In this document: positions 13,297 through 47,042 of the stretch, piece after piece | How the letters are laid out: every line of letters begins with the position of its first letter | Numbering within the stretch: position 1 is the stretch's first letter | NCBI GenBank assembly: GCA_001771135.1 | Contig: MESW01000003.1 | Location: 72,719-136,718 of the forward strand | Reading direction: 5' to 3' | Length of the DNA stretch: 64,000 nucleotides | Source of the DNA: a candidate division CPR3 bacterium GWF2_35_18 | GTDB taxonomy: Bacteria; Patescibacteriota; CPR3; GWF2-35-18 | Made by a program: the position numbers and the translations under genes | Notes under the pieces: model-generated | Databases searched by the model: none | Told to the model about the DNA's origin: nothing | What the model saw: only the letters and a program-made list of their open reading frames with translations

Positions 13297-16200
13297 TCAT
13301 CGACGTAATTTGGTAATAAATATTACCGTACTAATCAATCCAGTTAGTAAAAAAATAATTGTACCTCCTAAAAAACCAGTGTCTGGAAGTTGAAAGATAC
13401 TGCTCCGGACGAAGATACTAAAGTTAATGGTATCTTTATTACCAGCTTGATCAGTAGATATAATAGTGACTTCATGAAGTCCAAGAGGAATATTAATTTC
13501 AGGAGTATAACTCCAATTACCCGTATCATCAATTGTTGTATTTCCAATAATAGGTTCTGAATTGATGGTAATATTAACGATCGCTTCTTTTTCTCCTGTC
13601 CCTTCAAAAACTGGTTTACTGTTATTTAACTCCCACTGGGTTAAGTCTTTATTAAAGGTAACTCCTCCTAATTTAACTAAGTTGATAGTGGTTGTAGTAT
13701 CGAGAATGATACTGGCGCTGTAAATCAAAGATTCATTCCCCGCACCATCACGATATTTGATATAAATTGTCTTAATACCATCTCCTTCTGATAATGTCCA
13801 TACTTTTGTTTTAGAGTAAGACTCCCACTCTACTCCAATAAAATTAGGATTTTCAGAGATAATCATTTCCACAACTTCGGTTAAATCATCCGTTCCCGGA
13901 AGAATTAAGGTAATTGTTTTTTCGTTAGTATATTCGTTATTACTGGGACTCACAATTTCAATTGGTCCTTCAGGAGATTTAGTATCCAAAATAATAGTAT
14001 CACTATAGATAGTTGATTCATTACCGGCCACATCTTTGTACTTGGCATAAACTGTTTTTGTACCATTATTACTAGAGAGAGTAAACGTTTTAGAGGTGTC
14101 ATATGATTCCCAACTTGATCCAGTAAAAGATTCATTTTCAGAAAGAATCATCTGACTTATTCCGGAAGGATTATCGATAGCCGATAAAGTAAGAATAACT
14201 TCTCTACTATTAGTGTTTTCAGCTCCTTCATTGATAGTTATACTTCCTGTCGGTAAAGTATCGTCTACATTAAAATTTGTAGATTGATACAAGATTTCAG
14301 GTAAATACACTTCATTTTGATCAATGGAACGAACGGTTAATGTATGAGTTCCTTCACTTAAAGAACTCGGGGAAGTACAAGAATAATTTTCTGATATTTC
14401 ATCAAAGGCACCATCAGAAGCAGTACAATCAAACCATATACCCCCATCAATCTTTCCCTGGATATTTTTTAGAAAAACAGATTGACTATTTGATTCCGCA
14501 TACGTATTTTTTGTCCAAGAGACACCATCAGATGAAGTTGCGTAAGCCAATCTCCCATTTGTCCCATCATGCCCGGTATACCACATCTTATAGATTCCAT
14601 TTTCTTTTATTAAGCTTCCAAAGTAAACGCTTCCTTTATCAATTGAATATGTATTACTTTGAGATAAAACTGGATTATTATCAGATTTAGTCCAAATAGC
14701 TCCATCCGGAGAAGTCGTATAATGAATTTGATATCTTAATCCATCATATCCGGTATACCACATTTTATAGGTTTCATTATCTTTGATTACATAACCTGAA
14801 AAAGCATGAACATCATCTGTTTCTCCAGAAGATCCCAAGGGAATAACACAACCATCCCCAATAGTCCCACTACAGTTGTTCCCAGAATTTCGAGTCCAGG
14901 TTAAACCATCATTCGAAGTTGCATAACCAATTCTCACATTACTGCCATCATGCCCAGTATACCACATTTTATATATTGTCTCGTCCTTGATCACATAAGG
15001 ATAATAAGTATGAGCATCATCCCAGTTACCGTTAACTGCTTTTGTAAAAAGACATCCATCTCCTAATGTTCCCAAGCAATTATTCCCAGAATTTCTTGTC
15101 CAAGTTATACCATCTGTAGATGTTGCATAACCGATTCGCATCGTACTTCCATCATGTCCGCTATACCACATCTTATATGTTTCCCCCTCTTTTATGACAC
15201 TGATACCATAGAGATGAAGATCATCCCAATTACCATTTGCACTTAGGTCAAAAATGCAACCATCTCCAGTTGTACTACCACAATTATTCCCATCATATTT
15301 TGTCCAATTTATACCATCTGTAGATGTTGCGTAACCGATTCGCCAGTTAGTATTATTCGATCCGGAATACCACATCTTATAGGTTGTTCCATCTTTTATT
15401 ACTGAAGGAGCATATCCCGTATGGTAGTAATCCCAATCGTAAACAGTTCCATGTTCATAATCTGCTCTACCTAGATCTAATAAAGTAGTGGTTTTGTCAA
15501 TTACCTTATCTTGGATGGGATTATTTGCTTCTCCAGATAAAGAAACGGTAGCTGTATAATATGGAGAGATAGTGTCGAGAGAAATACTAGCTTCATCATT
15601 TCCAATCTCCCAGATATCTAATTTTCCCGTGCCTCCTCCATGTCCAAGGATAGCTAAGTCCTCATACTCATCATAATCAAAGTTACCGACAATCATAGCT
15701 CTACCATAAGATAAAGAGCGCGTTAAATAATGAGGAGCAGTTATAAAAAGATCTGCGTTTTCAATAGCTTCAACTTCTCCGGACATATTTATTAAATTAT
15801 TTCCATAGTAAATATATACTCCTCCTTTAAAATCTTTATTAGTATTAAAAGTATAATATCCGTAATAATAACCCCCAACAGCCAGATCTAAATTTCCATC
15901 GTTATTCCAGTCATTAACAACAACCGACACTCCAAACATATGATACGGAATATTAGAATACAAAATAATATCCGCGTCTTCAGGATGAAGAATAGTTTGA
16001 GATAAGTAATTCGATTTTCCTAAAAATATCATTACTCCTCCTCTATAAGATACTCCATATCCACTTAATCCTATGATGATATCTTGTAAATTATCATTAT
16101 CAATATCGGCAACAATAAAATTTTGATAGCCGCCTAAATACTGATATGATGTGCTTCCTTCAATAATTAAATCCGCTTCAGAAAAAAGTTTGTTAGCAGT

Positions 16201-18300
16201 AGTTAAAGGTCCCAAAAAGATTCCTACCGAGCCAATATAGTTTTGATCATAACGATAACTAGATATGATAAGATCATCAATATTATCACTGTTTATATCG
16301 GCACTGTAATGACCTTGACCAGTGTAATAATTGGCTGTATCGCCTTTAACAGTAAAATCTGCATCAGTCCCAGCGTTTAAGTTCAAATCCCAAGCATGTT
16401 CTCCACCAAAAAAAACATATGTTTTCCCAGCATCAGTCTTTCCATCATAATCATATTTATATGCTCCCAAGGCTAAATCCGGCCAATCATCATTATTAAA
16501 ATCACTAACGGCCATAAGATCTAATCCTCCAAAACGGGAACCAGCTTGTTCAGCATCAATTACAATAGCAGCATCACTATAACTATCAATAGTTTCAAAA
16601 AAATCAGCTCTTCCCCAAAATATGTATACTCTTCCAGTTAGACTGCTTGGAGAACCCACAGCATTTACAATCAAATCATCGTAATTATCTTGATTAAGAT
16701 CACTAATAAAAATGCTATATCCAAAACGATCGTTTACTTTCTCTCCTAGAATAAAACTAGTTCTTTCAGTAGGAATTTCTGAAGATGTGCCTTGGTAAAG
16801 ATGCACCTCTCCAGTACTTGAAATGGAATAGTCTTGCCCTACTGCAAGATCAATATACCCATCGTTATTAAGATCACCTTTTTGTAAGCTGTGACCTTGA
16901 CCTGCCCCAAAAGAAGCAGCTGGATCACCAATGATACTTTGCTGTAAAAAACCATCGCTGTTTTCAGGGTAGTAATAATCAATTCCATACCGACCTAGAT
17001 AAACATCATCGTTTAAAGAAGCCGTATTTTTAGTATCAACCACAATTGTGCCGCGATTATTAGTTGAGATATAAATTAAATGATTCGTGGTATCTAAAGT
17101 CCCAAATGTTCCATAATTACTACTAATTTCAATAGAGCTTGTAATACCATAGCTTCCTTGCAGTGTATCATCACTCGGATCAACTGTTCCTTGAGTATTA
17201 ATTACAGTCATAGAAGAAACTAGGTTGTAGTGAGTAATATAAAGTAAATTACCTTCAACATATACTGACTTTACTCCTCCTGCGCTTTGTAGGGCTGGAT
17301 TTGAAGATAACAATACACCAGTAGAACTATCGGTAGTATTCCAGACTCCCGTAGTCCGATAAGCAAAAGAGGTATTATCATTTAGATTAACAACCGATAA
17401 GACTCCATCAGATGAACTTCCTTGAGAAGGTAGATATAAAAGCTTATTACCACTATCAAGCCCGATCTTTTCAATATTATTATGAGCAAGATGAGGAGTT
17501 GTCGAAGTTGAATAATTCGTTACAACAGTATCATCAGCAGGAGTCTTGGTGCCTTGAGTATTAAAAACTCTCATCCCTCCTCCCCAAGTTCCGATATACA
17601 GATAATTGTTATCAGAGTCAAAATATACTTGAGCTTGATTATTATTATGAGGAATTGCTGGAGTTGAGGTTGTTGTATAAGTAATCAAAAGTGTATCATC
17701 AGAGATCGTTACTGTTCCTTGAGTATCAATTACTGAAACTCCTCCTCCATAAGTAGATATATATAATAATTTGTTTATCGTATCCAAATAACTAGCATAA
17801 ACATTGTTATTTCCGATTGCGACGGGAGTGGAAGTTGTAGAATAAGTAGCATTTATAGTGTCATCAGTTGCAACAACTGTCCCATTGTTATCGATCACAT
17901 CTAATCCTCCAGAGGTACCAATATATATTAAATTTCCTATTTTATCGATAAACTTTATTGAATTTGAGCTTAGAGCTGGAGTTGAAGTAGTATTATAATT
18001 AATTACTATTGAATCATCTTCTAAATTATTCGTATTGTGAGTATTTATCACGTAAACACCAACATCACCAGTACCAATGTAAACAAGATTATTGGTATTA
18101 TCAATATAAGTATAGTAGCTTGAATTTGAAGAGATATAAAAAGTATATGGAGTTGCCTGCGCTAAGCTATTTGTAAAATTATTAAAAAGATAGAACTTTT
18201 GAGTAAAAGAAATTGTAAAGATTATCAGAATTATGATTATTCTTTTAAATAAATATAAGATTTTAATTTTCAGAGGCATAAAATGTTCTCTAAACTTCAT
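13297..18300 (-). CDS. Giant LPXTG-anchored cell-surface protein (1667 aa). It carries an N-terminal signal/TM, Reg_prop-like propeller repeats, FG-GAP (integrin-alpha-like) repeats, five tandem GH43/GH130-like propeller blades (YKMWY...IGYATS.DG..WT), Ig-like domains, two Big_5-like domains and a C-terminal LPDTG sorting signal.
   Basis: The repeat motifs are read from the translation. The C-terminus QLPDTGFLGG, a hydrophobic stretch and KLRR form a sortase signal. Confidence 0.75.
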   Translation of the reverse strand: MKFREHFMPLKIKILYLFKRIIIILIIFTISFTQKFYLFNNFTNSLAQATPYTFYISSNSSYYTYIDNTNNLVYIGTGDVGVYVINTHNTNNLEDDSIVINYNTTSTPALSSNSIKFIDKIGNLIYIGTSGGLDVIDNNGTVVATDDTINATYSTTSTPVAIGNNNVYASYLDTINKLLYISTYGGGVSVIDTQGTVTISDDTLLITYTTTSTPAIPHNNNQAQVYFDSDNNYLYIGTWGGGMRVFNTQGTKTPADDTVVTNYSTSTTPHLAHNNIEKIGLDSGNKLLYLPSQGSSSDGVLSVVNLNDNTSFAYRTTGVWNTTDSSTGVLLSSNPALQSAGGVKSVYVEGNLLYITHYNLVSSMTVINTQGTVDPSDDTLQGSYGITSSIEISSNYGTFGTLDTTNHLIYISTNNRGTIVVDTKNTASLNDDVYLGRYGIDYYYPENSDGFLQQSIIGDPAASFGAGQGHSLQKGDLNNDGYIDLAVGQDYSISSTGEVHLYQGTSSEIPTERTSFILGEKVNDRFGYSIFISDLNQDNYDDLIVNAVGSPSSLTGRVYIFWGRADFFETIDSYSDAAIVIDAEQAGSRFGGLDLMAVSDFNNDDWPDLALGAYKYDYDGKTDAGKTYVFFGGEHAWDLNLNAGTDADFTVKGDTANYYTGQGHYSADINSDNIDDLIISSYRYDQNYIGSVGIFLGPLTTANKLFSEADLIIEGSTSYQYLGGYQNFIVADIDNDNLQDIIIGLSGYGVSYRGGVMIFLGKSNYLSQTILHPEDADIILYSNIPYHMFGVSVVVNDWNNDGNLDLAVGGYYYGYYTFNTNKDFKGGVYIYYGNNLINMSGEVEAIENADLFITAPHYLTRSLSYGRAMIVGNFDYDEYEDLAILGHGGGTGKLDIWEIGNDEASISLDTISPYYTATVSLSGEANNPIQDKVIDKTTTLLDLGRADYEHGTVYDWDYYHTGYAPSVIKDGTTYKMWYSGSNNTNWRIGYATSTDGINWTKYDGNNCGSTTGDGCIFDLSANGNWDDLHLYGISVIKEGETYKMWYSGHDGSTMRIGYATSTDGITWTRNSGNNCLGTLGDGCLFTKAVNGNWDDAHTYYPYVIKDETIYKMWYTGHDGSNVRIGYATSNDGLTWTRNSGNNCSGTIGDGCVIPLGSSGETDDVHAFSGYVIKDNETYKMWYTGYDGLRYQIHYTTSPDGAIWTKSDNNPVLSQSNTYSIDKGSVYFGSLIKENGIYKMWYTGHDGTNGRLAYATSSDGVSWTKNTYAESNSQSVFLKNIQGKIDGGIWFDCTASDGAFDEISENYSCTSPSSLSEGTHTLTVRSIDQNEVYLPEILYQSTNFNVDDTLPTGSITINEGAENTNSREVILTLSAIDNPSGISQMILSENESFTGSSWESYDTSKTFTLSSNNGTKTVYAKYKDVAGNESTIYSDTIILDTKSPEGPIEIVSPSNNEYTNEKTITLILPGTDDLTEVVEMIISENPNFIGVEWESYSKTKVWTLSEGDGIKTIYIKYRDGAGNESLIYSASIILDTTTTINLVKLGGVTFNKDLTQWELNNSKPVFEGTGEKEAIVNITINSEPIIGNTTIDDTGNWSYTPEINIPLGLHEVTIISTDQAGNKDTINFSIFVRSSIFQLPDTGFLGGTIIFLLTGLISTVIFITKLRR
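14450..15500 (-). repeat. Five tandem in-frame coding repeats (about 180-205 bp each) encoding near-identical propeller-blade units of the giant surface protein
   Basis: A recurrent DNA motif encoding YKMWY at about 14580, 14760, 14965, 15165 and 15370. The protein repeats are about 60-70% identical. Confidence 0.6.
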
Positions 18301-36218: not shown

Positions 36219-38549
36219 TTACACTAACGCTTCCTTGAGAACCTCATCAACCCGCTTCACAAAAACGAATTTGAGCTGTTTGCGGACTTCGGCTGGAACG
36301 TCTTTCTCCAGGTCTTTCTGATTATCCGCCGGCATAATGATTTTCTTTAAACCCGCACGATGAGCAGCCAGAACTTTTTCTTTCACTCCGCCGATTTCGA
36401 GCACCTTCCCACGTAGCGTAATTTCTCCAGTCATGCCGATATCTTTACGAACTTTTTTCCCGGTATATAGAGAAACGAGACTGGTTGTCATCGTTACCCC
36501 GGCTGAAGGACCGTCTTTGGGAATCGCGCCCTCCGGAACATGAATATGGAGATCATTAACTTTGAAGAGTTTAGGATCGATCTTTAGCTCTTTACTCTTT
36601 GATTTGACGTAAGAAAGAGCGGCTTGTGCGGATTCTTTCATCACATCACCCAGCTGTCCGGTAATAATAAGCCCACCTTTTCCCGGATAATAGGTCGATT
36701 CGATCGCCAGGATATCTCCACCGGCTTCAGTCCAGGCAAGTCCGGTAGCGACACCGGTTTCATCTGCTTCTTCTTTGAGCCAGGCGGAAAACTTCCGTGG
36801 ACCCAAGATCTCTTCGATTTGTTTTTCATTAACCGTAGGGCTAATTTTTTTGTTTTCTGCAATCTTCCGCGCCAATTTTCTAAGAATTGAAGATAGTTCT
36901 CTCTCAAAGTTACGCACCCCAGCTTCGCGGGTATAATTACGAATGATTCTACGTAGAGCTTTTTCCTCAATCTTGATCTTGCGTTTATTGAGTCCATGCG
37001 ACTTTAATAGTCGAGGTAAAAGATATTTTTTGGCAATATGATACTTTTCTTCCTCTGTGTAACCCGAATAACGAATCACTTCCATTCGGTCTCGCAGAGC
37101 TGGAGGAATCGTATCTAGGATATTTGCCGTTGTTATAAACATCACGTCTGAGAGATCAAATGGCACTTCTAGATAATGATCAGAAAAAGCATGATTCTGT
37201 TCAGGATCAAGAGCTTCCAGTAATGCGGAAGAGGGATCGCCACGATAATCATTACCAACCTTGTCGATTTCATCAAGCATAAAGACCGGATTGCTGCTTT
37301 TGACCTGTTGAATGCTTTGAATAATTCTTCCTGGCAAAGCGCCGACATATGTCCTTCTGTGACCGCGGATTTCAGCCTCATCTTTGATTCCACCCAAAGA
37401 CATCTTCACAAATTTGCGATTAAGGGCTTTGGCAATTGATTTTCCGATTGAAGTTTTCCCAGTACCCGGAGGACCGACAAAACAAAGAATCGAACCGCGC
37501 ATTTTTCCCACCAGTTTATTTACAGCTAAATATTCTAGAATTCTTTCTTTCACCCTTTCTAATCCATAATGATCTTCATCCAGAATCGCTTCAGCTTTTT
37601 TCAAATCAATCTGATCTTTGGTCTTTTTGCTCCAAGGCAGATCAACAATAGTTTCCAAATAAGCGCGTAAATAGGAAGACTCTGGATTCATTGAAGACAT
37701 CTTTTCAAAACGATTTAGGTCTTTGACAACCTTTTCCTTGGCTTCTTCAGGCATTTTCAAAGCACTGATTTTTTTGCGCAGAGTTTCAACCTCGTTTTCA
37801 TCTTCCTCGTCTCCCAGCTCTTTTTGAATGGTTTTCATCTGTTCGCGCAAAATCACCTCTTTTTGCATCTTGGAAAGCTCTTGATGCGCTTTACTTTCTA
37901 GTTTCTTGCCCAAACGCAACACTGAAAGCTCTTTACCCAAAATGTCGTTAATGATATCTAGCTTCACTTTGGTTTCGACCTGTTCCAAGATTTTCTGTTT
38001 ATCAATGAGCTTGAGATCAAGGCTTCCCGCAATTAGATCCGCCAAAGAATGAGTATCGTCAACAGAAAGGATATTAATCAAAGCTTCCATGGGCACGGAT
38101 TTTCCTAAAGTAACGGCTTTTTTGAACTGCGAAAGTACCGCGGCTTTGAGCGCTTCAATTTCCTGCGAATACTGGATTACTTCTTCAACATTTTCAACTT
38201 CAACTTTATAAAATGGTTTAGTTTGGGTGAATTTGTGAATTTTGACACGTTTAAGACCTTCGACAAGAATTCGGGTTTCTTTAGTTTCATTGAAAACCTG
38301 TCGGACGACGGCTAGAGTTCCCACCTGGTAAATCTGTTTATTGGTCGGATTTTCGACACTGGCATCCTGTTGAGCGGAAAAGACAATATATCCACCATGC
38401 TTTTGGGCTTCAGTCAAAGCGTTCACGGAGTAATTCCTTCCCAAAGTTAAGGGAAAAAGCACTTTCGGAAAGATAATCACATTCCGTAAAGGTATCAACG
38501 GATATTCGTTAAAATTTTTCTTTTTGAGGGAAGATAATATATCAGTCAT
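36219..38549 (-). CDS. lon: ATP-dependent protease Lon (LonA)
   Basis: LON N-domain, AAA+ Walker [10 protein letters not shown] and S16 protease [14 protein letters not shown]. 776 aa. Confidence 0.92.
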
Positions 38550-38658
38550 AGTATTTATTATAAATTAAATCTAGGCAAAAAGTAACGGTTTTACTGTATC
38601 AGAGGAAAATAATATTGTCAATCGTATATTGAGACTGCTAATAGGGAATAATTTAATT

Positions 38659-39303
38659 CTAACCTAGTATATCGGCAAAATTAAGAATAAAATAATCCGG
38701 ATTTAAGGCTTTTAAGTCTTCTTTACTATAAAATCGGTGATTTATTTCTGGATAAAAGATTGCCGTTTTGATATAGGCCGCTTTCCCCGCCTTCACATCG
38801 CTACCGGAATCCCCTATTATAATTGTTTCCGAGTTTGTAGCTCCCAAACGACTCATCGCTTTTTCAACTACCTCAGGATGTGGTTTATAATTTACGACAT
38901 CTTCGGCGGATAAAACTATAGGGAAAAACTTTTCCAAGCCGAGTTTTTTCAAAGGATCTACAACCTGAATCCGCATCGAAGAAGAAACAATAGCCATTTT
39001 CTTTCCGGATTCAAATAGTTTGTTTAAAACCGGCTTCACACCTTCATGCAGCTTCACTTCTAGACGCCTATCGATTACTCTTTTTGATATCTTATTGATA
39101 AAACCGATATTATCTTTTACTCCCAGGTTAAGCGGACCCTTTTCCCAATTTCCCCAAGATTTACTCATCACATCAGCTTCAGTCACTGTGACTCCATACT
39201 CGTGATAAAAATGAAGATAAGCTTCCATCCAGATAGAAAGAGTGTCTGCCAGGCATCCATCCCAATCAAAAAGGACATATTGATATTTATGCTGTATTTT
39301 CAT
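38659..39303 (-). CDS. HAD-family hydrolase (subfamily IA phosphatase-like)
   Basis: Motif I VLFDWDGCL and motif IV GDSGSD. Confidence 0.75.
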   Translation of the reverse strand: MKIQHKYQYVLFDWDGCLADTLSIWMEAYLHFYHEYGVTVTEADVMSKSWGNWEKGPLNLGVKDNIGFINKISKRVIDRRLEVKLHEGVKPVLNKLFESGKKMAIVSSSMRIQVVDPLKKLGLEKFFPIVLSAEDVVNYKPHPEVVEKAMSRLGATNSETIIIGDSGSDVKAGKAAYIKTAIFYPEINHRFYSKEDLKALNPDYFILNFADILG

Positions 39304-39311
39304 GGGAAGAA

Positions 39312-41969
39312 TTATATAGCTGATTTCTTTTTCCGTAAAGAATAGAAAATAGCTATCGGAATAATTAAAATAATAACCGTTGAACCTCCGTAAATCATTA
39401 AAGTGGAAATTGTGACTCCGGTTTCGGGTAGCTCTGCTGGAGCGTTAATGGTTAAAGAAAATTGTAAAGTATCGGTATTCCCAGCAATATCTTCTGAATC
39501 AATAGTTACAGTGTGTGCTCCAACTGGAATATTAATGTCTGGTGTAAATGTCCAACTGCCATCATCTCCGACGATTGTTTGCCCAGTAATGGGATCTGAA
39601 TTGATCGTCACCGTCACCGTAGAATCAGCTTCTCCTGTACCTATAAATACCGGTTTCATGTTGTTGGTATTCCAATCGGTCAGATCGTCATTAAATTCAC
39701 CATTATCGATTGATTCAAGAGAAATTGTAGTTGTTGTATCGAGAAACAAAGTAACCGTATAAATCTCACTTTCATTAGATGCGGCATCACGGTATTTCAC
39801 ATAGATAACTTTGATTCCATCACCATTGGAAAGATCCCAAGTCATGTTTTCCGCATATGTGACCCAGATTCCGTCTGAGAAGTTCGGATCTTCAGAAATC
39901 ATAACTTCTACTACCCCTGCCAGAGAATCGAATCCTTCCAAAACAAGATTTACGGTTTCTTCGTTCGAATAGGTAGTTCCTTCATATTCTACCCCACTAT
40001 CAGTAGTACTTTCACCAGTGGGAGTAGAGGTATCCAGGATAATACTATCCGAAATAGAAGCTGATTCGTTATCCAAGCTATCTCTAAACTTCACATACAC
40101 TGTCTTCGTTCCTTCTGTCGTAGAAAGGGTAAACACTTTTGTGGTATTGTAAGTCTCCCATGTCTCTCCGGTGAAACTAGAGCTTTCGGATAAGATCATT
40201 TCTGAGACTCCACTCACAAGGTCTGTTGCTGACAAGGTCAATGTTACACTGGTTGTATTTGTATAAGCAGCATCACCATTAATAACAATGCTTCCACCAC
40301 TGGGTCCTGACAGATCTACTGTAAATGTCTCTTCAGATTCACTTCCAGAACCGGTTGTATTTCCAACGTCATCACTACCTCTAACGTAAACCGTATGTTC
40401 ACCTTCATTAAGGGCTGTTGCTGGAGTACAACCGAAGGTTTCACTAACTTCGTCAAAAACCCCATCATCGGCGACACAATTACTCCAACTTCCAGAAGTA
40501 ATATCAACTTGAAACTGTACACTAGAAAGTGGATGTGAATCGGTGACAGTTCCCGTAATACTGGGAGTCTCATCTCCAGTTGGATCTGGCGTAACTGTAT
40601 CCAAAGCTATTACCGGGTCAGTAGTATCAGTAACTAAACGTGCGAATTTCAAATGACCAGTATTATCATCTTCGTAAGTAATAATGTAATCACCATAATT
40701 ATCGATTGTAAGATATGGATTATATACATAAGAAGTGGCATCAATTATTTCTGAAGTCCAGGTAGCCCCTTCATCTTCAGATTTATGTAGAATTAGTCCT
40801 GCATCATAACCTTCATCTACTAGTAAATAATTGTTATTATTATCAATAGCTAATGAATAAAATGTTGATAATTCTTCTGACAATTCAGTATCAACCCAGG
40901 TTTGTCCGTTATCATTTGATTTTTTTATCAGTCCATTTGGATACAAATAGGCATGTTGACTTTTCACAAAAGCTACAAAATCATTATTCTTATCTATCTG
41001 AAAATTTGCTTCTGTAGCAGAGTATTCATTTTCATATGAGAAATTCTCTGTCCAAGTCAATCCTTGATCATTTGAATAAATGAAATTAACAGAATATGTT
41101 GGGATTTGCAATTGCCCTCCAGTATAACTAGAAATATAAACATAATAATTATTATTATTATCATAATAAATGGAAGCACTTTCTAAAGATCTATTCAATT
41201 GGCTACCATCAACTTCAAGATAGTAGGTATCCCATGTTTGTCCTTGATCACTTGAAATTGCATATTTTACATCTCTGTAATATGTTGTAAGTCCTAAAGG
41301 AGTTCTTGATAACGGATTTGGAGAAATAAATATTAAACCTCCAGATGAATAATAATAATTGTAGAAAACTATATAATTACCTTCTTTATCAATACTTAAG
41401 CTTGAGCTACCACCACAAGAGCCTGATTCTAAACCCTCATATATATCAACTTGTGTTTTATTCCAAGTTACTCCTGCATCTACAGAACGTGCAAACTGTA
41501 AAGAATTATCTTCATCTGCATAAGTCAAAAGGTAATCACCATTGTCGTCAATTATAAAACCCAAAGGTCCCCAGTCATTATAGGTAGAATCATCGATCTC
41601 GGTTATCGTCCAAGTATGACCATAATCTAGTGATTTAGCCATATTTAAAGCTGTGGTATCGTAATTCGAATAAATTACAATATAGTTGTTATTAGCATCT
41701 GTCACAATTTTATTTGTATAACCCACCCAATCATCTGAATCATCGATAGTCGTTAACTCCCAAGTTGGAGCCGCCTGAACTTCAGAAACTATAGGAAAAT
41801 AAAAAAAAGTGTTAAATGAGAGTATAAAGATCAAAGTTAAGGTTATAATAATCCGGAATAGTTTATTATTTAATCTCAATAATTTATTAAACATATATTT
41901 TTTATCCTCAATATATATAAGTAATTTTGTATTATCTACATTATAGGGATTAACTGGAAACTTTGGCAA
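39312..41969 (-). CDS. Giant LPXTG-anchored surface protein (885 aa). N-terminal signal, BNR/Asp-box propeller (six S-x-D-x-G-x-T-W repeats), Ig-like domain, two Big_5-like domains, Ig-like domain and an LPETG sorting signal. It is a paralog of the C-terminal module of the 13297-18300 protein.
   Basis: Asp-box repeats SLDYGHTW, SVDAGVTW, SSDQGQTW, SNDQGLTW, SNDNGQTW and SEDEGATW. C-terminus ELPETG, hydrophobic stretch and RKKK. About 50% identity to the other giant protein over the last ~300 aa. Confidence 0.75.
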   Translation of the reverse strand: MPKFPVNPYNVDNTKLLIYIEDKKYMFNKLLRLNNKLFRIIITLTLIFILSFNTFFYFPIVSEVQAAPTWELTTIDDSDDWVGYTNKIVTDANNNYIVIYSNYDTTALNMAKSLDYGHTWTITEIDDSTYNDWGPLGFIIDDNGDYLLTYADEDNSLQFARSVDAGVTWNKTQVDIYEGLESGSCGGSSSLSIDKEGNYIVFYNYYYSSGGLIFISPNPLSRTPLGLTTYYRDVKYAISSDQGQTWDTYYLEVDGSQLNRSLESASIYYDNNNNYYVYISSYTGGQLQIPTYSVNFIYSNDQGLTWTENFSYENEYSATEANFQIDKNNDFVAFVKSQHAYLYPNGLIKKSNDNGQTWVDTELSEELSTFYSLAIDNNNNYLLVDEGYDAGLILHKSEDEGATWTSEIIDATSYVYNPYLTIDNYGDYIITYEDDNTGHLKFARLVTDTTDPVIALDTVTPDPTGDETPSITGTVTDSHPLSSVQFQVDITSGSWSNCVADDGVFDEVSETFGCTPATALNEGEHTVYVRGSDDVGNTTGSGSESEETFTVDLSGPSGGSIVINGDAAYTNTTSVTLTLSATDLVSGVSEMILSESSSFTGETWETYNTTKVFTLSTTEGTKTVYVKFRDSLDNESASISDSIILDTSTPTGESTTDSGVEYEGTTYSNEETVNLVLEGFDSLAGVVEVMISEDPNFSDGIWVTYAENMTWDLSNGDGIKVIYVKYRDAASNESEIYTVTLFLDTTTTISLESIDNGEFNDDLTDWNTNNMKPVFIGTGEADSTVTVTINSDPITGQTIVGDDGSWTFTPDINIPVGAHTVTIDSEDIAGNTDTLQFSLTINAPAELPETGVTISTLMIYGGSTVIILIIPIAIFYSLRKKKSAI

Positions 41970-41976
41970 GAAGTAT

Positions 41977-42396
41977 TTAAACTGTAAGCTTATGTTTACG
42001 ACGTTTGGCGATTTTCAGATCGATTAATGAGCGACGGAAAGCCGCTTTGGCATTGATATGAATCTCACCCTTGGGCTTCTCCTTGAGAATCTCTTCGGCT
42101 CGTTTCTGCGCCTCCAAAACTTTCTGCTCATCAATTTCCTGCGCATGAACAGCTTTATCGGCAAGAACGAGTACTTTTTGAGAAGAAACTTCCAAAAATC
42201 CACCCCCGATAGAGTAATACTCTTCATGATTTTGAGTATGAATGATGAGTTCTCCTGGCTCAAGGATTGTAAATAATGGAACATGTTTGGGAAGAATAGT
42301 AAGCTGTCCACTCCTAGTGTTTACAGTAATTCTTTCCGCAACATCTTTATATTTTGTCCCTTCGGGAGAGATGATTTCTAAAGGAAAAGTGTCCAT
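41977..42396 (-). CDS. atpC: F-type ATP synthase epsilon subunit
   Basis: Beta-sandwich N-terminus (EIISPEG...) and a C-terminal helical hairpin. Last gene of the atp operon. Confidence 0.85.
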   Translation of the reverse strand: MDTFPLEIISPEGTKYKDVAERITVNTRSGQLTILPKHVPLFTILEPGELIIHTQNHEEYYSIGGGFLEVSSQKVLVLADKAVHAQEIDEQKVLEAQKRAEEILKEKPKGEIHINAKAAFRRSLIDLKIAKRRKHKLTV

Positions 42397-42411
42397 AATT
42401 AGAATCTCATA

Positions 42412-43815
<1,404 letters not shown>

Positions 43816-44781: not shown

Positions 44782-46305
44782 TTAAACGGAAACAGTTTTC
44801 AATGACAAATCGCTATTTTCTTCTTTAAACTTCTTAGTAGCCTTTTCAAGTCCGCTTACCACACTATCACTAAGCTCTTTTTCTTCGATAATCTGTTTTA
44901 AAACTTTAGCATAGTTATTTTTTAAATAATAAACATATTTTTCTTCAAATTCGGTAATCTTTTCAACGGGAATATCATCAACATACCCATTTACAGCTGC
45001 CCAAATAATCGCAATCTGACTCTCCACGGGAACCGGTGCATATTGCGGTTGTTTCAAAATTTCGGTAACCCGAGATCCACGATCAAGCTGCGATTGAGTT
45101 GTTTTATCAAGATCTGATCCAAATTGGGCAAAAGCAGCTAGCTCTCGATATTGCGCCAAATCTAGTCTTAACTTTCCAGAAACCTTTTTCATTGCTTTAA
45201 TTTGCGCTGCCCCACCAACACGAGAAACTGAGATACCTACATTAAGTGCTGGTCGAATTCCAGAGTAAAAGAGATCTGATTCCAAAAATATCTGTCCATC
45301 AGTAATAGAAATAACATTAGTAGGAATATAGGCAGAAACATCTCCGGCCTGCGTTTCAATAATTGGAAGTGCTGTCAATGACCCACCGCCGAACTTTTCG
45401 TCCAAACGGCAAGCACGTTCCAAAAGTCTCGAGTGTAAGAAGAAAACATCTCCAGGATAAGCTTCACGACCGGAAGGACGACGAAGTAGTAAGGAGATCT
45501 GACGGTAAGCCCAAGCATGCTTGGTAAGATCATCGTAGATAACTAAAACATCTTTTCCAGACTCCATAAAATATTCACCCAAAGCACAACCAGCATAAGG
45601 AGCTAAATATTGAAGTGTCGTTGGATCCGAAGCATTTGCAGCCACAACAATCGTGTACTGCATGGCTCCATGTTCTTCAAGCTTATTAATTACCTGAGCT
45701 AACTTTGAAGCCTTCTGACCAATCGAAACATAAATACAAATAACATTTTCATTTTTTTGATTAATAATAGTATCGATCGCAATTGCCGATTTTCCAGTTC
45801 CGCGATCACCGATAATAAGTTCGCGTTGACCACGACCGATAGGAATAATAGCATCAATTGCTTTGATTCCGGTTTGCAAAGGAGTAGAAACAGATTTTCG
45901 GGTAATTACTCCGGGAGCGATTTTTTCAATTGGTTGATAAGCATCAATTTTGAAATCACCTTTATTATCAAGGAGCTTCCCGAGAGGAGTCATTACACGA
46001 CCTATTACTTCTTTGGAAACAGGAATCGAAAGTAATTTCCCGGTAGTTTTTACAACATCACCCTCTTTTAAATCTTCATATTTACCCAAAACGACTACGC
46101 CAACTTCATCTTTTTCGAGATTCAAAACTAATCCTTTTTCTCCATTGGGAAGATCTATAAGCTCATTGTACATGGCTTTTGAAAGACCAGAGATCTTTAA
46201 TACTCCATCTCCAACTTCTTTTATGGTTCCTAGATTCTCAACGGATCCTTCGAATTTAAACTTCTCAATTTTTTGTTTTAAATTTAGATCAAACCCTTTA
46301 GACAT
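44782..46305 (-). CDS. atpA: F-type ATP synthase alpha subunit
   Basis: Walker A GDRGTGKS. 507 aa. Confidence 0.95.
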
Positions 46306-46308
46306 AAT

Positions 46309-46524
46309 TTAATCCTCTAAATATTTTTCCATCTCCTTAAGCTTGGTTTTTAAGCTTAAATTGATGATTTTATCTTCATGTTTAATTATGAGTCCACCCA
46401 AGATCTTTTTGTCTTCGGTATATGAGATATTAAGATCCTTACCCAAAATACGTTTTAATTCGGACTCAACGTTTTCGCGCTGTTTATCATCTAACTTAAT
46501 TGTAGAAACTACTTCAGTTTTCAT
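46309..46524 (-). CDS. atpH: Truncated F-type ATP synthase delta (OSCP) subunit. Only the C-terminal domain is present (71 aa).
   Basis: EVVSTIKLDDKQ...LGKDL...ILGGLIIKHEDKIIN matches the delta C-terminal consensus (EVTSA.PLS...LG.KV...IGG..I..GD.VID). Position in the operon is conserved. The about 100-aa N-terminal helical domain is absent. Confidence 0.6.
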   Translation of the reverse strand: MKTEVVSTIKLDDKQRENVESELKRILGKDLNISYTEDKKILGGLIIKHEDKIINLSLKTKLKEMEKYLED

Positions 46525-46541
46525 ATTAATTAATGATTAAA

Positions 46542-47042
46542 TTAATGTAGAGAAACTTTTTCGAGATCTTTAATAGCTTGGTTCAAAAGACTCTTTTGTT
46601 TATTTTCATCAAACGATTCCTGCATCACCTTTTCGGCAATCAGAACAGCCATCTCGGCTGATTGTCTTTTAATCTCTTTAAACATCTCCTTCTTATCTGC
46701 TTCAATCTCTGATTCCAACTTCTTTCTGACTATCTCCAATTCCTTTTGACCTTTTTTAAGTAATTCTTCTTTTTCTTTTTGAGCTTGTATCTTCGATTGA
46801 GTAATTATTTTATCGGCCTGTTTTTTGGCTTCACTGATAGTATTTTTCTCAGATTCTGTAGCTTCAAGAAATTTTTTGCCTGCCTCATTATTTAATTCTT
46901 CTGTTTCTTCGGCTTTTTTCTTTCTCTCATCAAGTACTTTTAAAATTGGTTTAAAAAGAAACTTTTTAAGTAACAAAAGGAGTATAACAAAGTTGACTAT
47001 CTGAGCAATAATCAAGATTGGCTGAATCCCTAATTTTTCCAT
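46542..47042 (-). CDS. atpF: F-type ATP synthase subunit b
   Basis: Single N-terminal TM followed by a long charged coiled coil. Operon position. Confidence 0.8.
   Translation of the reverse strand: MEKLGIQPILIIAQIVNFVILLLLLKKFLFKPILKVLDERKKKAEETEELNNEAGKKFLEATESEKNTISEAKKQADKIITQSKIQAQKEKEELLKKGQKELEIVRKKLESEIEADKKEMFKEIKRQSAEMAVLIAEKVMQESFDENKQKSLLNQAIKDLEKVSLH

Follow-up and report, generated by a model that had tools for sequence, protein, structure and literature searches.

How bacteria of the candidate phyla radiation (CPR, or Patescibacteria) attach to and recognize their hosts is largely unknown, and binding modules displayed at the cell surface are candidates for the factors behind host recognition. 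Comparable proteins were described by Kantor et al. (2013), whose text on CPR surface proteins reports large products that carry signal peptides, LPXTG motifs and domains of the beta-propeller, PKD or FN3 type, in genomes that also encode sortases (PMC3812714); sortases together with sorted large surface proteins of these domain classes have been reported in CPR genomes in a second study as well (PMC7143001). Here we describe a protein of the same kind, for which the text of the 2013 report gives domain classes only, encoded in a stretch of 64,000 nucleotides (the window) from candidate division CPR3 bacterium GWF2_35_18 (contig MESW01000003.1, positions 72,719 to 136,718). This 860-residue protein (KKP70191.1; 39312..41894) is built from an N-terminal propeller head, a stalk of four immunoglobulin (Ig)-like domains and a C-terminal anchor, and we conclude that it is probably a binding protein without catalytic activity, i.e., an adhesin or lectin-like protein, tethered by sortase or in the membrane of a CPR bacterium. 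All of the features of this gene and of its paralogue for which coordinates are given below lie on the minus strand.

Our analysis of the head (40629..41771) predicts, with good confidence, a seven-bladed Asp-box (BNR) beta-propeller, based on motifs, a Pfam BNR_2 match, a repeat alignment, an AlphaFold model and Foldseek comparisons. The first-pass annotation of this DNA had proposed a BNR propeller from six Asp-boxes, and both points held up: there are six exact S-x-D-x-G-x-T-W motifs (at residues 113, 162, 239, 299, 351 and 397 in the numbering of the 885-codon frame described below), spaced 46-77 residues apart, where the composition of the protein would lead one to expect 0.009 occurrences of S.D.G..W by chance, and the BNR_2 model (PF13088) gives 40.6 bits, clearing its gathering score of 31.4. 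The head divides into seven repeats of 55, 49, 77, 60, 52, 46 and 43 residues, in register with its seven-repeat relatives; the last repeat does not contain an Asp-box, and the ring appears to be closed by an N-terminal “APTW”, which would complete this last blade. These repeats are more diverged than those of most relatives, with a blade-to-blade mean pairwise identity of 0.32 vs 0.34-0.62 in the relatives sampled. A single-sequence AlphaFold prediction of the head was unusable (predicted local distance difference test, pLDDT, 52.6), and we used instead a run with a 14-sequence family alignment, which also served for the profile search against the PDB. This run gave a pLDDT of 84 and a predicted template modelling (pTM) score of 0.85, with 28 strands arranged as seven blades of four strands. 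Foldseek superimposed the model on the seven-bladed PHL/PLL lectins with template modelling (TM) scores of 0.64-0.67 (query) and 0.70-0.75 (target), a root-mean-square deviation (rmsd) of 4-5 A and an identity of 10-13%; the six-bladed GH33 sialidases gave TM scores of 0.52-0.57, an rmsd of 7-8 A or more and an identity of 14-16%.

Exo-alpha-sialidases of glycoside hydrolase family 33 (GH33) are recognized by six blades, an (F/Y)RIP motif and an arginine triad that binds the carboxylate of sialic acid, and in catalysis they use a Tyr as nucleophile, a Glu as its partner and, on the top face, an Asp as acid/base. In the head a motif search found no R[IVL]P motif, and just five arginines are present, with R161 at the FA[KR] position directly before an Asp-box, R444 at the same position in the last blade, where no Asp-box follows, and R222 and R232 in blade 3, in and around a poorly modelled insertion. 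Since neither the six blades nor the RIP motif and arginine triad are found, we place the head in the Asp-box propeller superfamily and outside GH33. Conservation across the family alignment points the same way: the invariant columns are solely the Ser, Gly and Trp of the Asp-boxes and one Leu, and there is no Arg, Glu or His among the invariant or nearly invariant columns. The nearly invariant Tyr columns (Y85 and Y367) lie inside a repeated ISYYD strand motif. What survives of the “sialidase-like” head of the first-pass annotation is the Asp-box propeller, and probably not the sialidase.

The resemblance to enzymes nevertheless has to be accounted for. If the head were an active glycoside hydrolase, i.e., a divergent sialidase or an Asp-box enzyme like the seven-bladed GH74 family, displayed on the surface for sugar harvest, this would fit with the BNR_2 score, with the GH130-like region present in the paralogue described below, and with the PDB matches of the family profile, among which are sialidases of GH33 (E 5e-18) and xyloglucanases of GH74 (E 1.6e-13). 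The same profile also matches sortilin (E 1.6e-4), and, as judged from the profile, the matches span the whole Asp-box superfamily and not a single family. A phmmer search of the head against PDB sequences gave Asp-box-length matches alone, with E-values of at least 0.018, and the alignments shown for the top PDB matches are anchored on Asp-box segments. The Asp-box is a structural and not a ligand-binding motif, found in propellers of six, seven and ten blades, non-enzymes included (PMC2716378); therefore, with the matches carried by the Asp-box, the resemblance to GH33 is misleading. The blades of the relatives are moreover near-repeats, at the mean pairwise identities given above, which is atypical of an asymmetric active site, and this, taken with the seven blades, the absence of a RIP motif and of family-wide Arg, Glu or His, and the poor superposition on sialidases, makes an enzymatic head improbable. 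Our finding is in this respect mainly corrective, in that “BNR/Asp-box” is not to be equated with “sialidase”, an error that the automatic annotation of relatives makes likewise.

Comparison with individual propellers of known structure shows where the head stands within the superfamily. The GH33 sialidases of Porphyromonas gingivalis (PG_0352, 8gn6) and Micromonospora viridifaciens (1eur) have Asp-boxes, four-stranded blades and a BNR_2 match in common with the head, and GH33 gives its top Foldseek and profile E-values, but they are six-bladed with a RIP motif, whereas the head is seven-bladed without one, at a TM score of about 0.55. The best geometric match is to the Photorhabdus lectins PHL and PLL2-5 (5mxg, 6rfz, 8q83), which have seven pseudo-symmetric blades as in the head, and which are non-catalytic, multivalent sugar binders, although these lectins are soluble and toxin-associated, unlike the head protein with its wall anchor. 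They were found by the fold search alone, and neither sequence nor profile searches against the PDB recovered them; the head resembles the PHL/PLL lectins in shape and is not a member of that lectin family. The GH74 xyloglucanases are Asp-box proteins with seven blades like the head, but occur as two tandem propellers that form a cleft; the YP_299179.1 family is, like the head, a seven-bladed and uncharacterized Asp-box propeller; and the Vps10/sortilin domain is an Asp-box receptor with ten blades vs the seven of the head. For these last three, we found no specific relationship to the head beyond the superfamily. The propeller is most likely a non-catalytic binding module, lectin- or adhesin-like; that its ligand is specifically a glycan is a more tentative suggestion, to which we give somewhat less than even weight.

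Several observations weigh against a tethered, non-catalytic binder. The lowest Foldseek E-values are those of sialidases, despite their poorer superposition; the relatives of the head carry the labels “sialidase family protein” or “exo-alpha-sialidase”, assigned by automatic annotation; the insertion in blade 3 (residues 147-160 of the modelled head) has a pLDDT below 50; and the case for a head without catalysis is built on absent conservation and on the geometry of the fold rather than on an assay. With regard to anchoring, two hidden Markov models (HMMs) of the LPXTG signal score just below their cut-offs, with TIGR01167 at 15.2 vs 15.9 and Pfam Gram_pos_anchor (PF00746) at 13.9 vs 20, and a scan covering the 64-kb window found no sortase TLxTC motif.

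Both ends of the protein bear on how it would reach and remain at the surface. By inspection, the first 41 residues of the 860-residue protein (41772..41894) form a signal peptide, which has a basic n-region and runs from MFNKLLRLNNKLFR through a hydrophobic core to the sequence VQA|AP, where the cleavage site is placed by an A-x-A-like rule. At the other end, a motif scan located a cell-wall sorting signal (39315..39443) made up of LPETG, the 27 hydrophobic residues VTISTLMIYGGSTVIILIIPIAIFYSL and the basic tail RKKKSAI, bearing out the LPXTG anchor claimed in the first-pass annotation. We are confident that the protein is surface-tethered. The C-terminus could in principle act as a transmembrane anchor only, with the LPETG not processed by a sortase and the product a type I membrane protein, and the two sub-threshold models, the lack of a sortase in the window and the relatives with non-canonical LxxTGE endings (LARTGE, LGGTGE, LAGTGE, LADTGE) lean in this direction. 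The canonical tripartite tail, the LPDTG of the paralogue, the LPETG, LPNTG and LPDTG of relatives of the stalk-anchor module, and the sortases reported for CPR genomes (PMC3812714, PMC7143001) all speak for a genuine sorting signal, and we consider a membrane anchor alone rather unlikely; it concerns the anchoring step only and is compatible with any of the other readings. Among the relatives, P0001, P0008, P0009, P0010 and P0013 end in LxxTGE tails (LARTGE, LAETGE, LGGTGE, LAGTGE and LADTGE), after which come a hydrophobic segment and basic residues; LxxTGE may be a variant sorting signal of CPR-like organisms, as far as these tails indicate.

Between the head and the anchor lies the stalk. 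The first-pass annotation had described its middle part as two consecutive Big_5 domains, a description we do not uphold: a Pfam search to an E-value of 10 did not list Big_5 (PF13205) in either domain, and the order given by HMMs is Big_13, two unassigned domains, and Big_13. The first stalk domain (40314..40628; residues 448-552) is a borderline Big_13 match (27.6 bits vs a gathering score of 27) with a Cys pair, C498/C514 in the 885-residue numbering, which probably forms a disulfide; this pair (W..C..DG.FDe..E.F.C) is conserved in 15 of 15 aligned segments. At least 14 relatives have this domain, at 44-56% identity, immediately behind their propeller, and therefore the propeller and its Cys-pair Ig domain constitute a conserved unit. 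The second domain (40029..40313; residues 553-647) is a widespread, unnamed Ig-like domain with the motifs ILSE..SFTG..WE.Y and GTKTVYVK, for which the best Pfam model is DUF7743 (E 0.021, below threshold). The third (39735..40028; residues 648-745) is a tandem duplicate of the second (38% identity over 79 residues, E 2e-13), with Big_13 as the best Pfam model (E 0.036, below threshold). Closest to this pair among NCBIfam models is an OmpL47-type domain, at 38.9 vs a cut-off of 40. The fourth domain (39444..39734; residues 746-842) is a Big_13 (PF19077; 59.5 bits vs a gathering score of 27). Domains of the type of the second and third occur widely across bacterial and archaeal extracellular proteins, where they often form long tandem arrays. 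Among the matches to the stalk profile is P0325, a “phage tail protein, partial [Desulfotomaculum sp.]” by annotation, which covers 61% of the query at 53% identity; if this annotation is taken as a guide, phage tail or fibre proteins seem to make use of such domains as well.

The stalk and anchor are shared with a second protein in the window, the 1667-residue product of 13297..18300. A BLASTP comparison of the two proteins gave an E-value of 2e-101, a tblastn search with the stalk gave 48% identity over 406 residues (E 1e-104), and an alignment of the two stalks showed 54% identity over the final 290 residues before the anchor. This formal alignment confirms the paralogy proposed in the first-pass annotation, along with the correspondence of the Cys-pair strings CVADDGVFDEVSETFGC and CTASDGAFDEISENYSC, which BLASTP aligned with each other; the identity of about 50% that it had given is also correct, with the shared length being about 400 residues and not about 300. 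The paralogous stalk and anchor, located by tblastn and by the stalk alignment at 13300..14472, consist of a partial first domain, in which the Cys-pair half is retained without the N-terminal half, the second and third domains, Big_13 and LPDTG. Identity to the copies in the paralogue is 61% for the second domain and 55% for the fourth. The DNA of the two stalk copies, the only two in the window, is 56% identical with a longest identical run of 11 nt. We rejected recent gene conversion between the stalks on these figures, and they therefore indicate an old duplication and not a mobile cassette.

The head of the paralogue, which is close to KKP70169.1, differs from that of the protein under study in consisting of an N-terminal repeat region, FG-GAP repeats and a GH130-like propeller. 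The N-terminal region of about 450 residues has repeats of its own and is followed by the FG-GAP repeats (70 bits), and the GH130-like region contains at least five YATS.DG..WT motifs, which are short S-x-D-G-x-x-W variants of the Asp-box. The GenBank annotation of this protein is “Laminin G, sub domain 2”. The paralogue probably carries several propellers on one stalk. The first-pass annotation saw two sugar-directed heads on a common stalk: the different propeller heads and the shared stalk stand, although in the paralogue just the GH130-like region, and not the FG-GAP repeats, is plausibly sugar-directed. The module made up of the second and third stalk domains, Big_13 and LPXTG recurs in other metagenomic proteins ending in LPETG, LPNTG or LPDTG, one of which is from another CPR3 genome. 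The paralogue and these metagenomic relatives bear out in outline the suggestion of a modular surface-display family with a common stalk and different heads, the count of stalk copies being limited to the two in the window. The shared stalk-anchor module and the propeller-Ig unit offer a handle for cataloguing CPR surface proteins, a protein type that has already been reported.

Taken in order, these parts suggest how a tethered binding protein of this design would work. The Sec signal peptide would direct export, and the C-terminal LPETG, hydrophobic segment and RKKK would retain the protein at the membrane; given a sortase in the genome, the sorting signal would be cut and the protein joined to peptidoglycan. 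The four Ig-like domains (Big_13 with its probable disulfide, two unnamed domains, and Big_13) would then serve as a stalk or spacer of about 400 residues projecting the seven-bladed propeller beyond the wall, where the propeller would bind, without catalysis, to a host-cell glycan or protein or to a matrix polymer. The same parts might instead belong to a purely structural component of the envelope, S-layer-associated or a spacer and with no specific ligand, in which the propeller provides self-assembly or lattice contacts. Conservation of the propeller is indeed wholly structural, a fragment in the cluster of the paralogue is automatically annotated “S-layer domain protein”, and the long tandem arrays in which the middle stalk domains occur in many extracellular proteins would suit such a role. 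HMM searches of the protein found neither an SLH domain nor any other domain for S-layer anchoring, the LPXTG tail implies tethering of single molecules rather than a lattice, and the 28-bp deletion that splits the gene in one population as assembled (described below) suggests that the gene can be lost, all of which leaves a purely structural role quite unlikely.

Our preferred interpretation, a tethered binding protein, can be set against the wider family of the head. A word-indexed homologue search was empty, which would have made the head an orphan; we rejected this status, since 553 relatives at E <= 1e-3 emerged when 1.84 billion representatives were searched exhaustively with HMMER, the top one having 37% identity and an E-value of 2e-52. 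The repeat in these relatives is very regular, at about 49 residues and usually in seven copies, with the consensus ~TW...vD..G.vG.y.Si.vD..nNYlISYyD..n..LKFAKS.DgG.tW, and several relatives have an identical layout of propeller, Ig domain with Cys pair, stalk and LxxTG anchor. Cluster look-ups of 17 relatives returned one named taxon, Candidatus Dojkabacteria, and that the family is enriched in CPR bacteria is an impression. KKP70191.1 itself has been in GenBank since the deposit of the Rifle groundwater genomes, and the cluster look-up assigns it to candidate division CPR3 bacterium GW2011_GWF2_35_18, under the name hypothetical or “Ig-like protein domain-containing surface protein”. The conserved combination of a seven-bladed, regular-repeat Asp-box propeller with a Cys-pair Ig unit may be previously undescribed, and so may the LxxTGE tails of relatives; the text of Kantor et al. 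on CPR surface proteins does not describe such a unit (PMC3812714). More speculatively, the propeller and Cys-pair Ig domain could define an uncharacterized family of wall-tethered, seven-fold pseudo-symmetric, lectin-like Asp-box adhesins, maybe CPR-enriched and bearing LPXTG or LxxTGE, that ultra-small episymbionts use on host-cell glycans, with an interchangeable Ig stalk that displays various heads, an idea that we hold only loosely.

Two further versions of this locus were seen in other assemblies. In ANAN16 scaffold_3750 (L005:5393-5563, corresponding to 40655-40682 of the window) a 28-bp deletion, flanked by CATT microhomology, lies in the last blade and splits the gene into a propeller open reading frame (ORF) of 405 residues and a stalk ORF of 446 residues; the deletion may reflect natural loss of function, or else an artefact of assembly. 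An 828-residue variant without Pfam matches at the same locus (L006) was dismissed, as its sequence is that of the same protein ending in Ns.

The start of the gene required correction. The mechanical ORF at 39312..41969 is uninterrupted and comprises 885 codons from a TTG, and inspection of the sequence found no Shine-Dalgarno or ribosome-binding site before this TTG, which coincides with the -35 hexamer TTGCCA of a promoter-like site. The ATG at 41894, 25 codons further downstream, is preceded at a distance of 10 nt by a Shine-Dalgarno-like GAGGA (41905..41909; direct reading of the sequence), and the gene as corrected from the ORF list, this GAGGA and public gene calls runs from ATG 41894 to a TAA, with the identical 860-residue product called on 13 public contigs. 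At this length, the protein does not merit the term “giant” applied to it in the first-pass annotation. The promoter-like site, TTGCCA-18-TATAAT (41940..41969), agrees with the sigma-70-like consensus at 11 of 12 positions and is the top-scoring such site in 38500-42500, a putative promoter by consensus match alone. It lies inside the 82 bp that separate the stop codon of atpC from ATG 41894, and the 7-bp gap to atpC given in the first-pass annotation is, like the early start and the coupling to the ATP synthase operon built on them, an artefact of ORF extension.

From the sequence of this interval, the surface-protein gene appears to be served by a promoter and a ribosome-binding site of its own, both downstream of atpC. 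Of the co-transcription with atpC that had been proposed, the 7-bp argument falls away, but read-through may occur, because no terminator-like hairpin was found. We rejected conserved synteny with the atp genes, since both of the two relatives checked are in unrelated neighbourhoods, and so the adjacency looks incidental from these gene contexts. The more likely co-transcribed partner is probably a gene for a HAD-family hydrolase (38659..39303), which starts 8 bp past the stop codon of the surface-protein gene. Composition gave no sign of horizontal transfer, with a GC content of 28-43% in overlapping 600-nt windows vs an average of 35% for the whole 64,000 nucleotides.

Some minor observations concern the surrounding genes. 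Of the 53 ORFs of at least 120 residues in 1-64000, 46 run on the minus strand, and among the seven plus-strand ORFs several overlap minus-strand genes; gene orientation is so strongly one-directional that adjacency is a weak argument for operon membership here. A second promoter-like site, TTTACG-17-TATAAT (10 of 12 positions), sits within the last codons of the surface-protein gene, near 39303-39314, before the HAD hydrolase gene. Within the ATP synthase operon (46305-47042; L003:6338-7071), the OSCP/delta product has just 71 residues, and the 166-residue gene product before it, presumably subunit b, has no Pfam match, so that the b/delta arrangement looks unusual.

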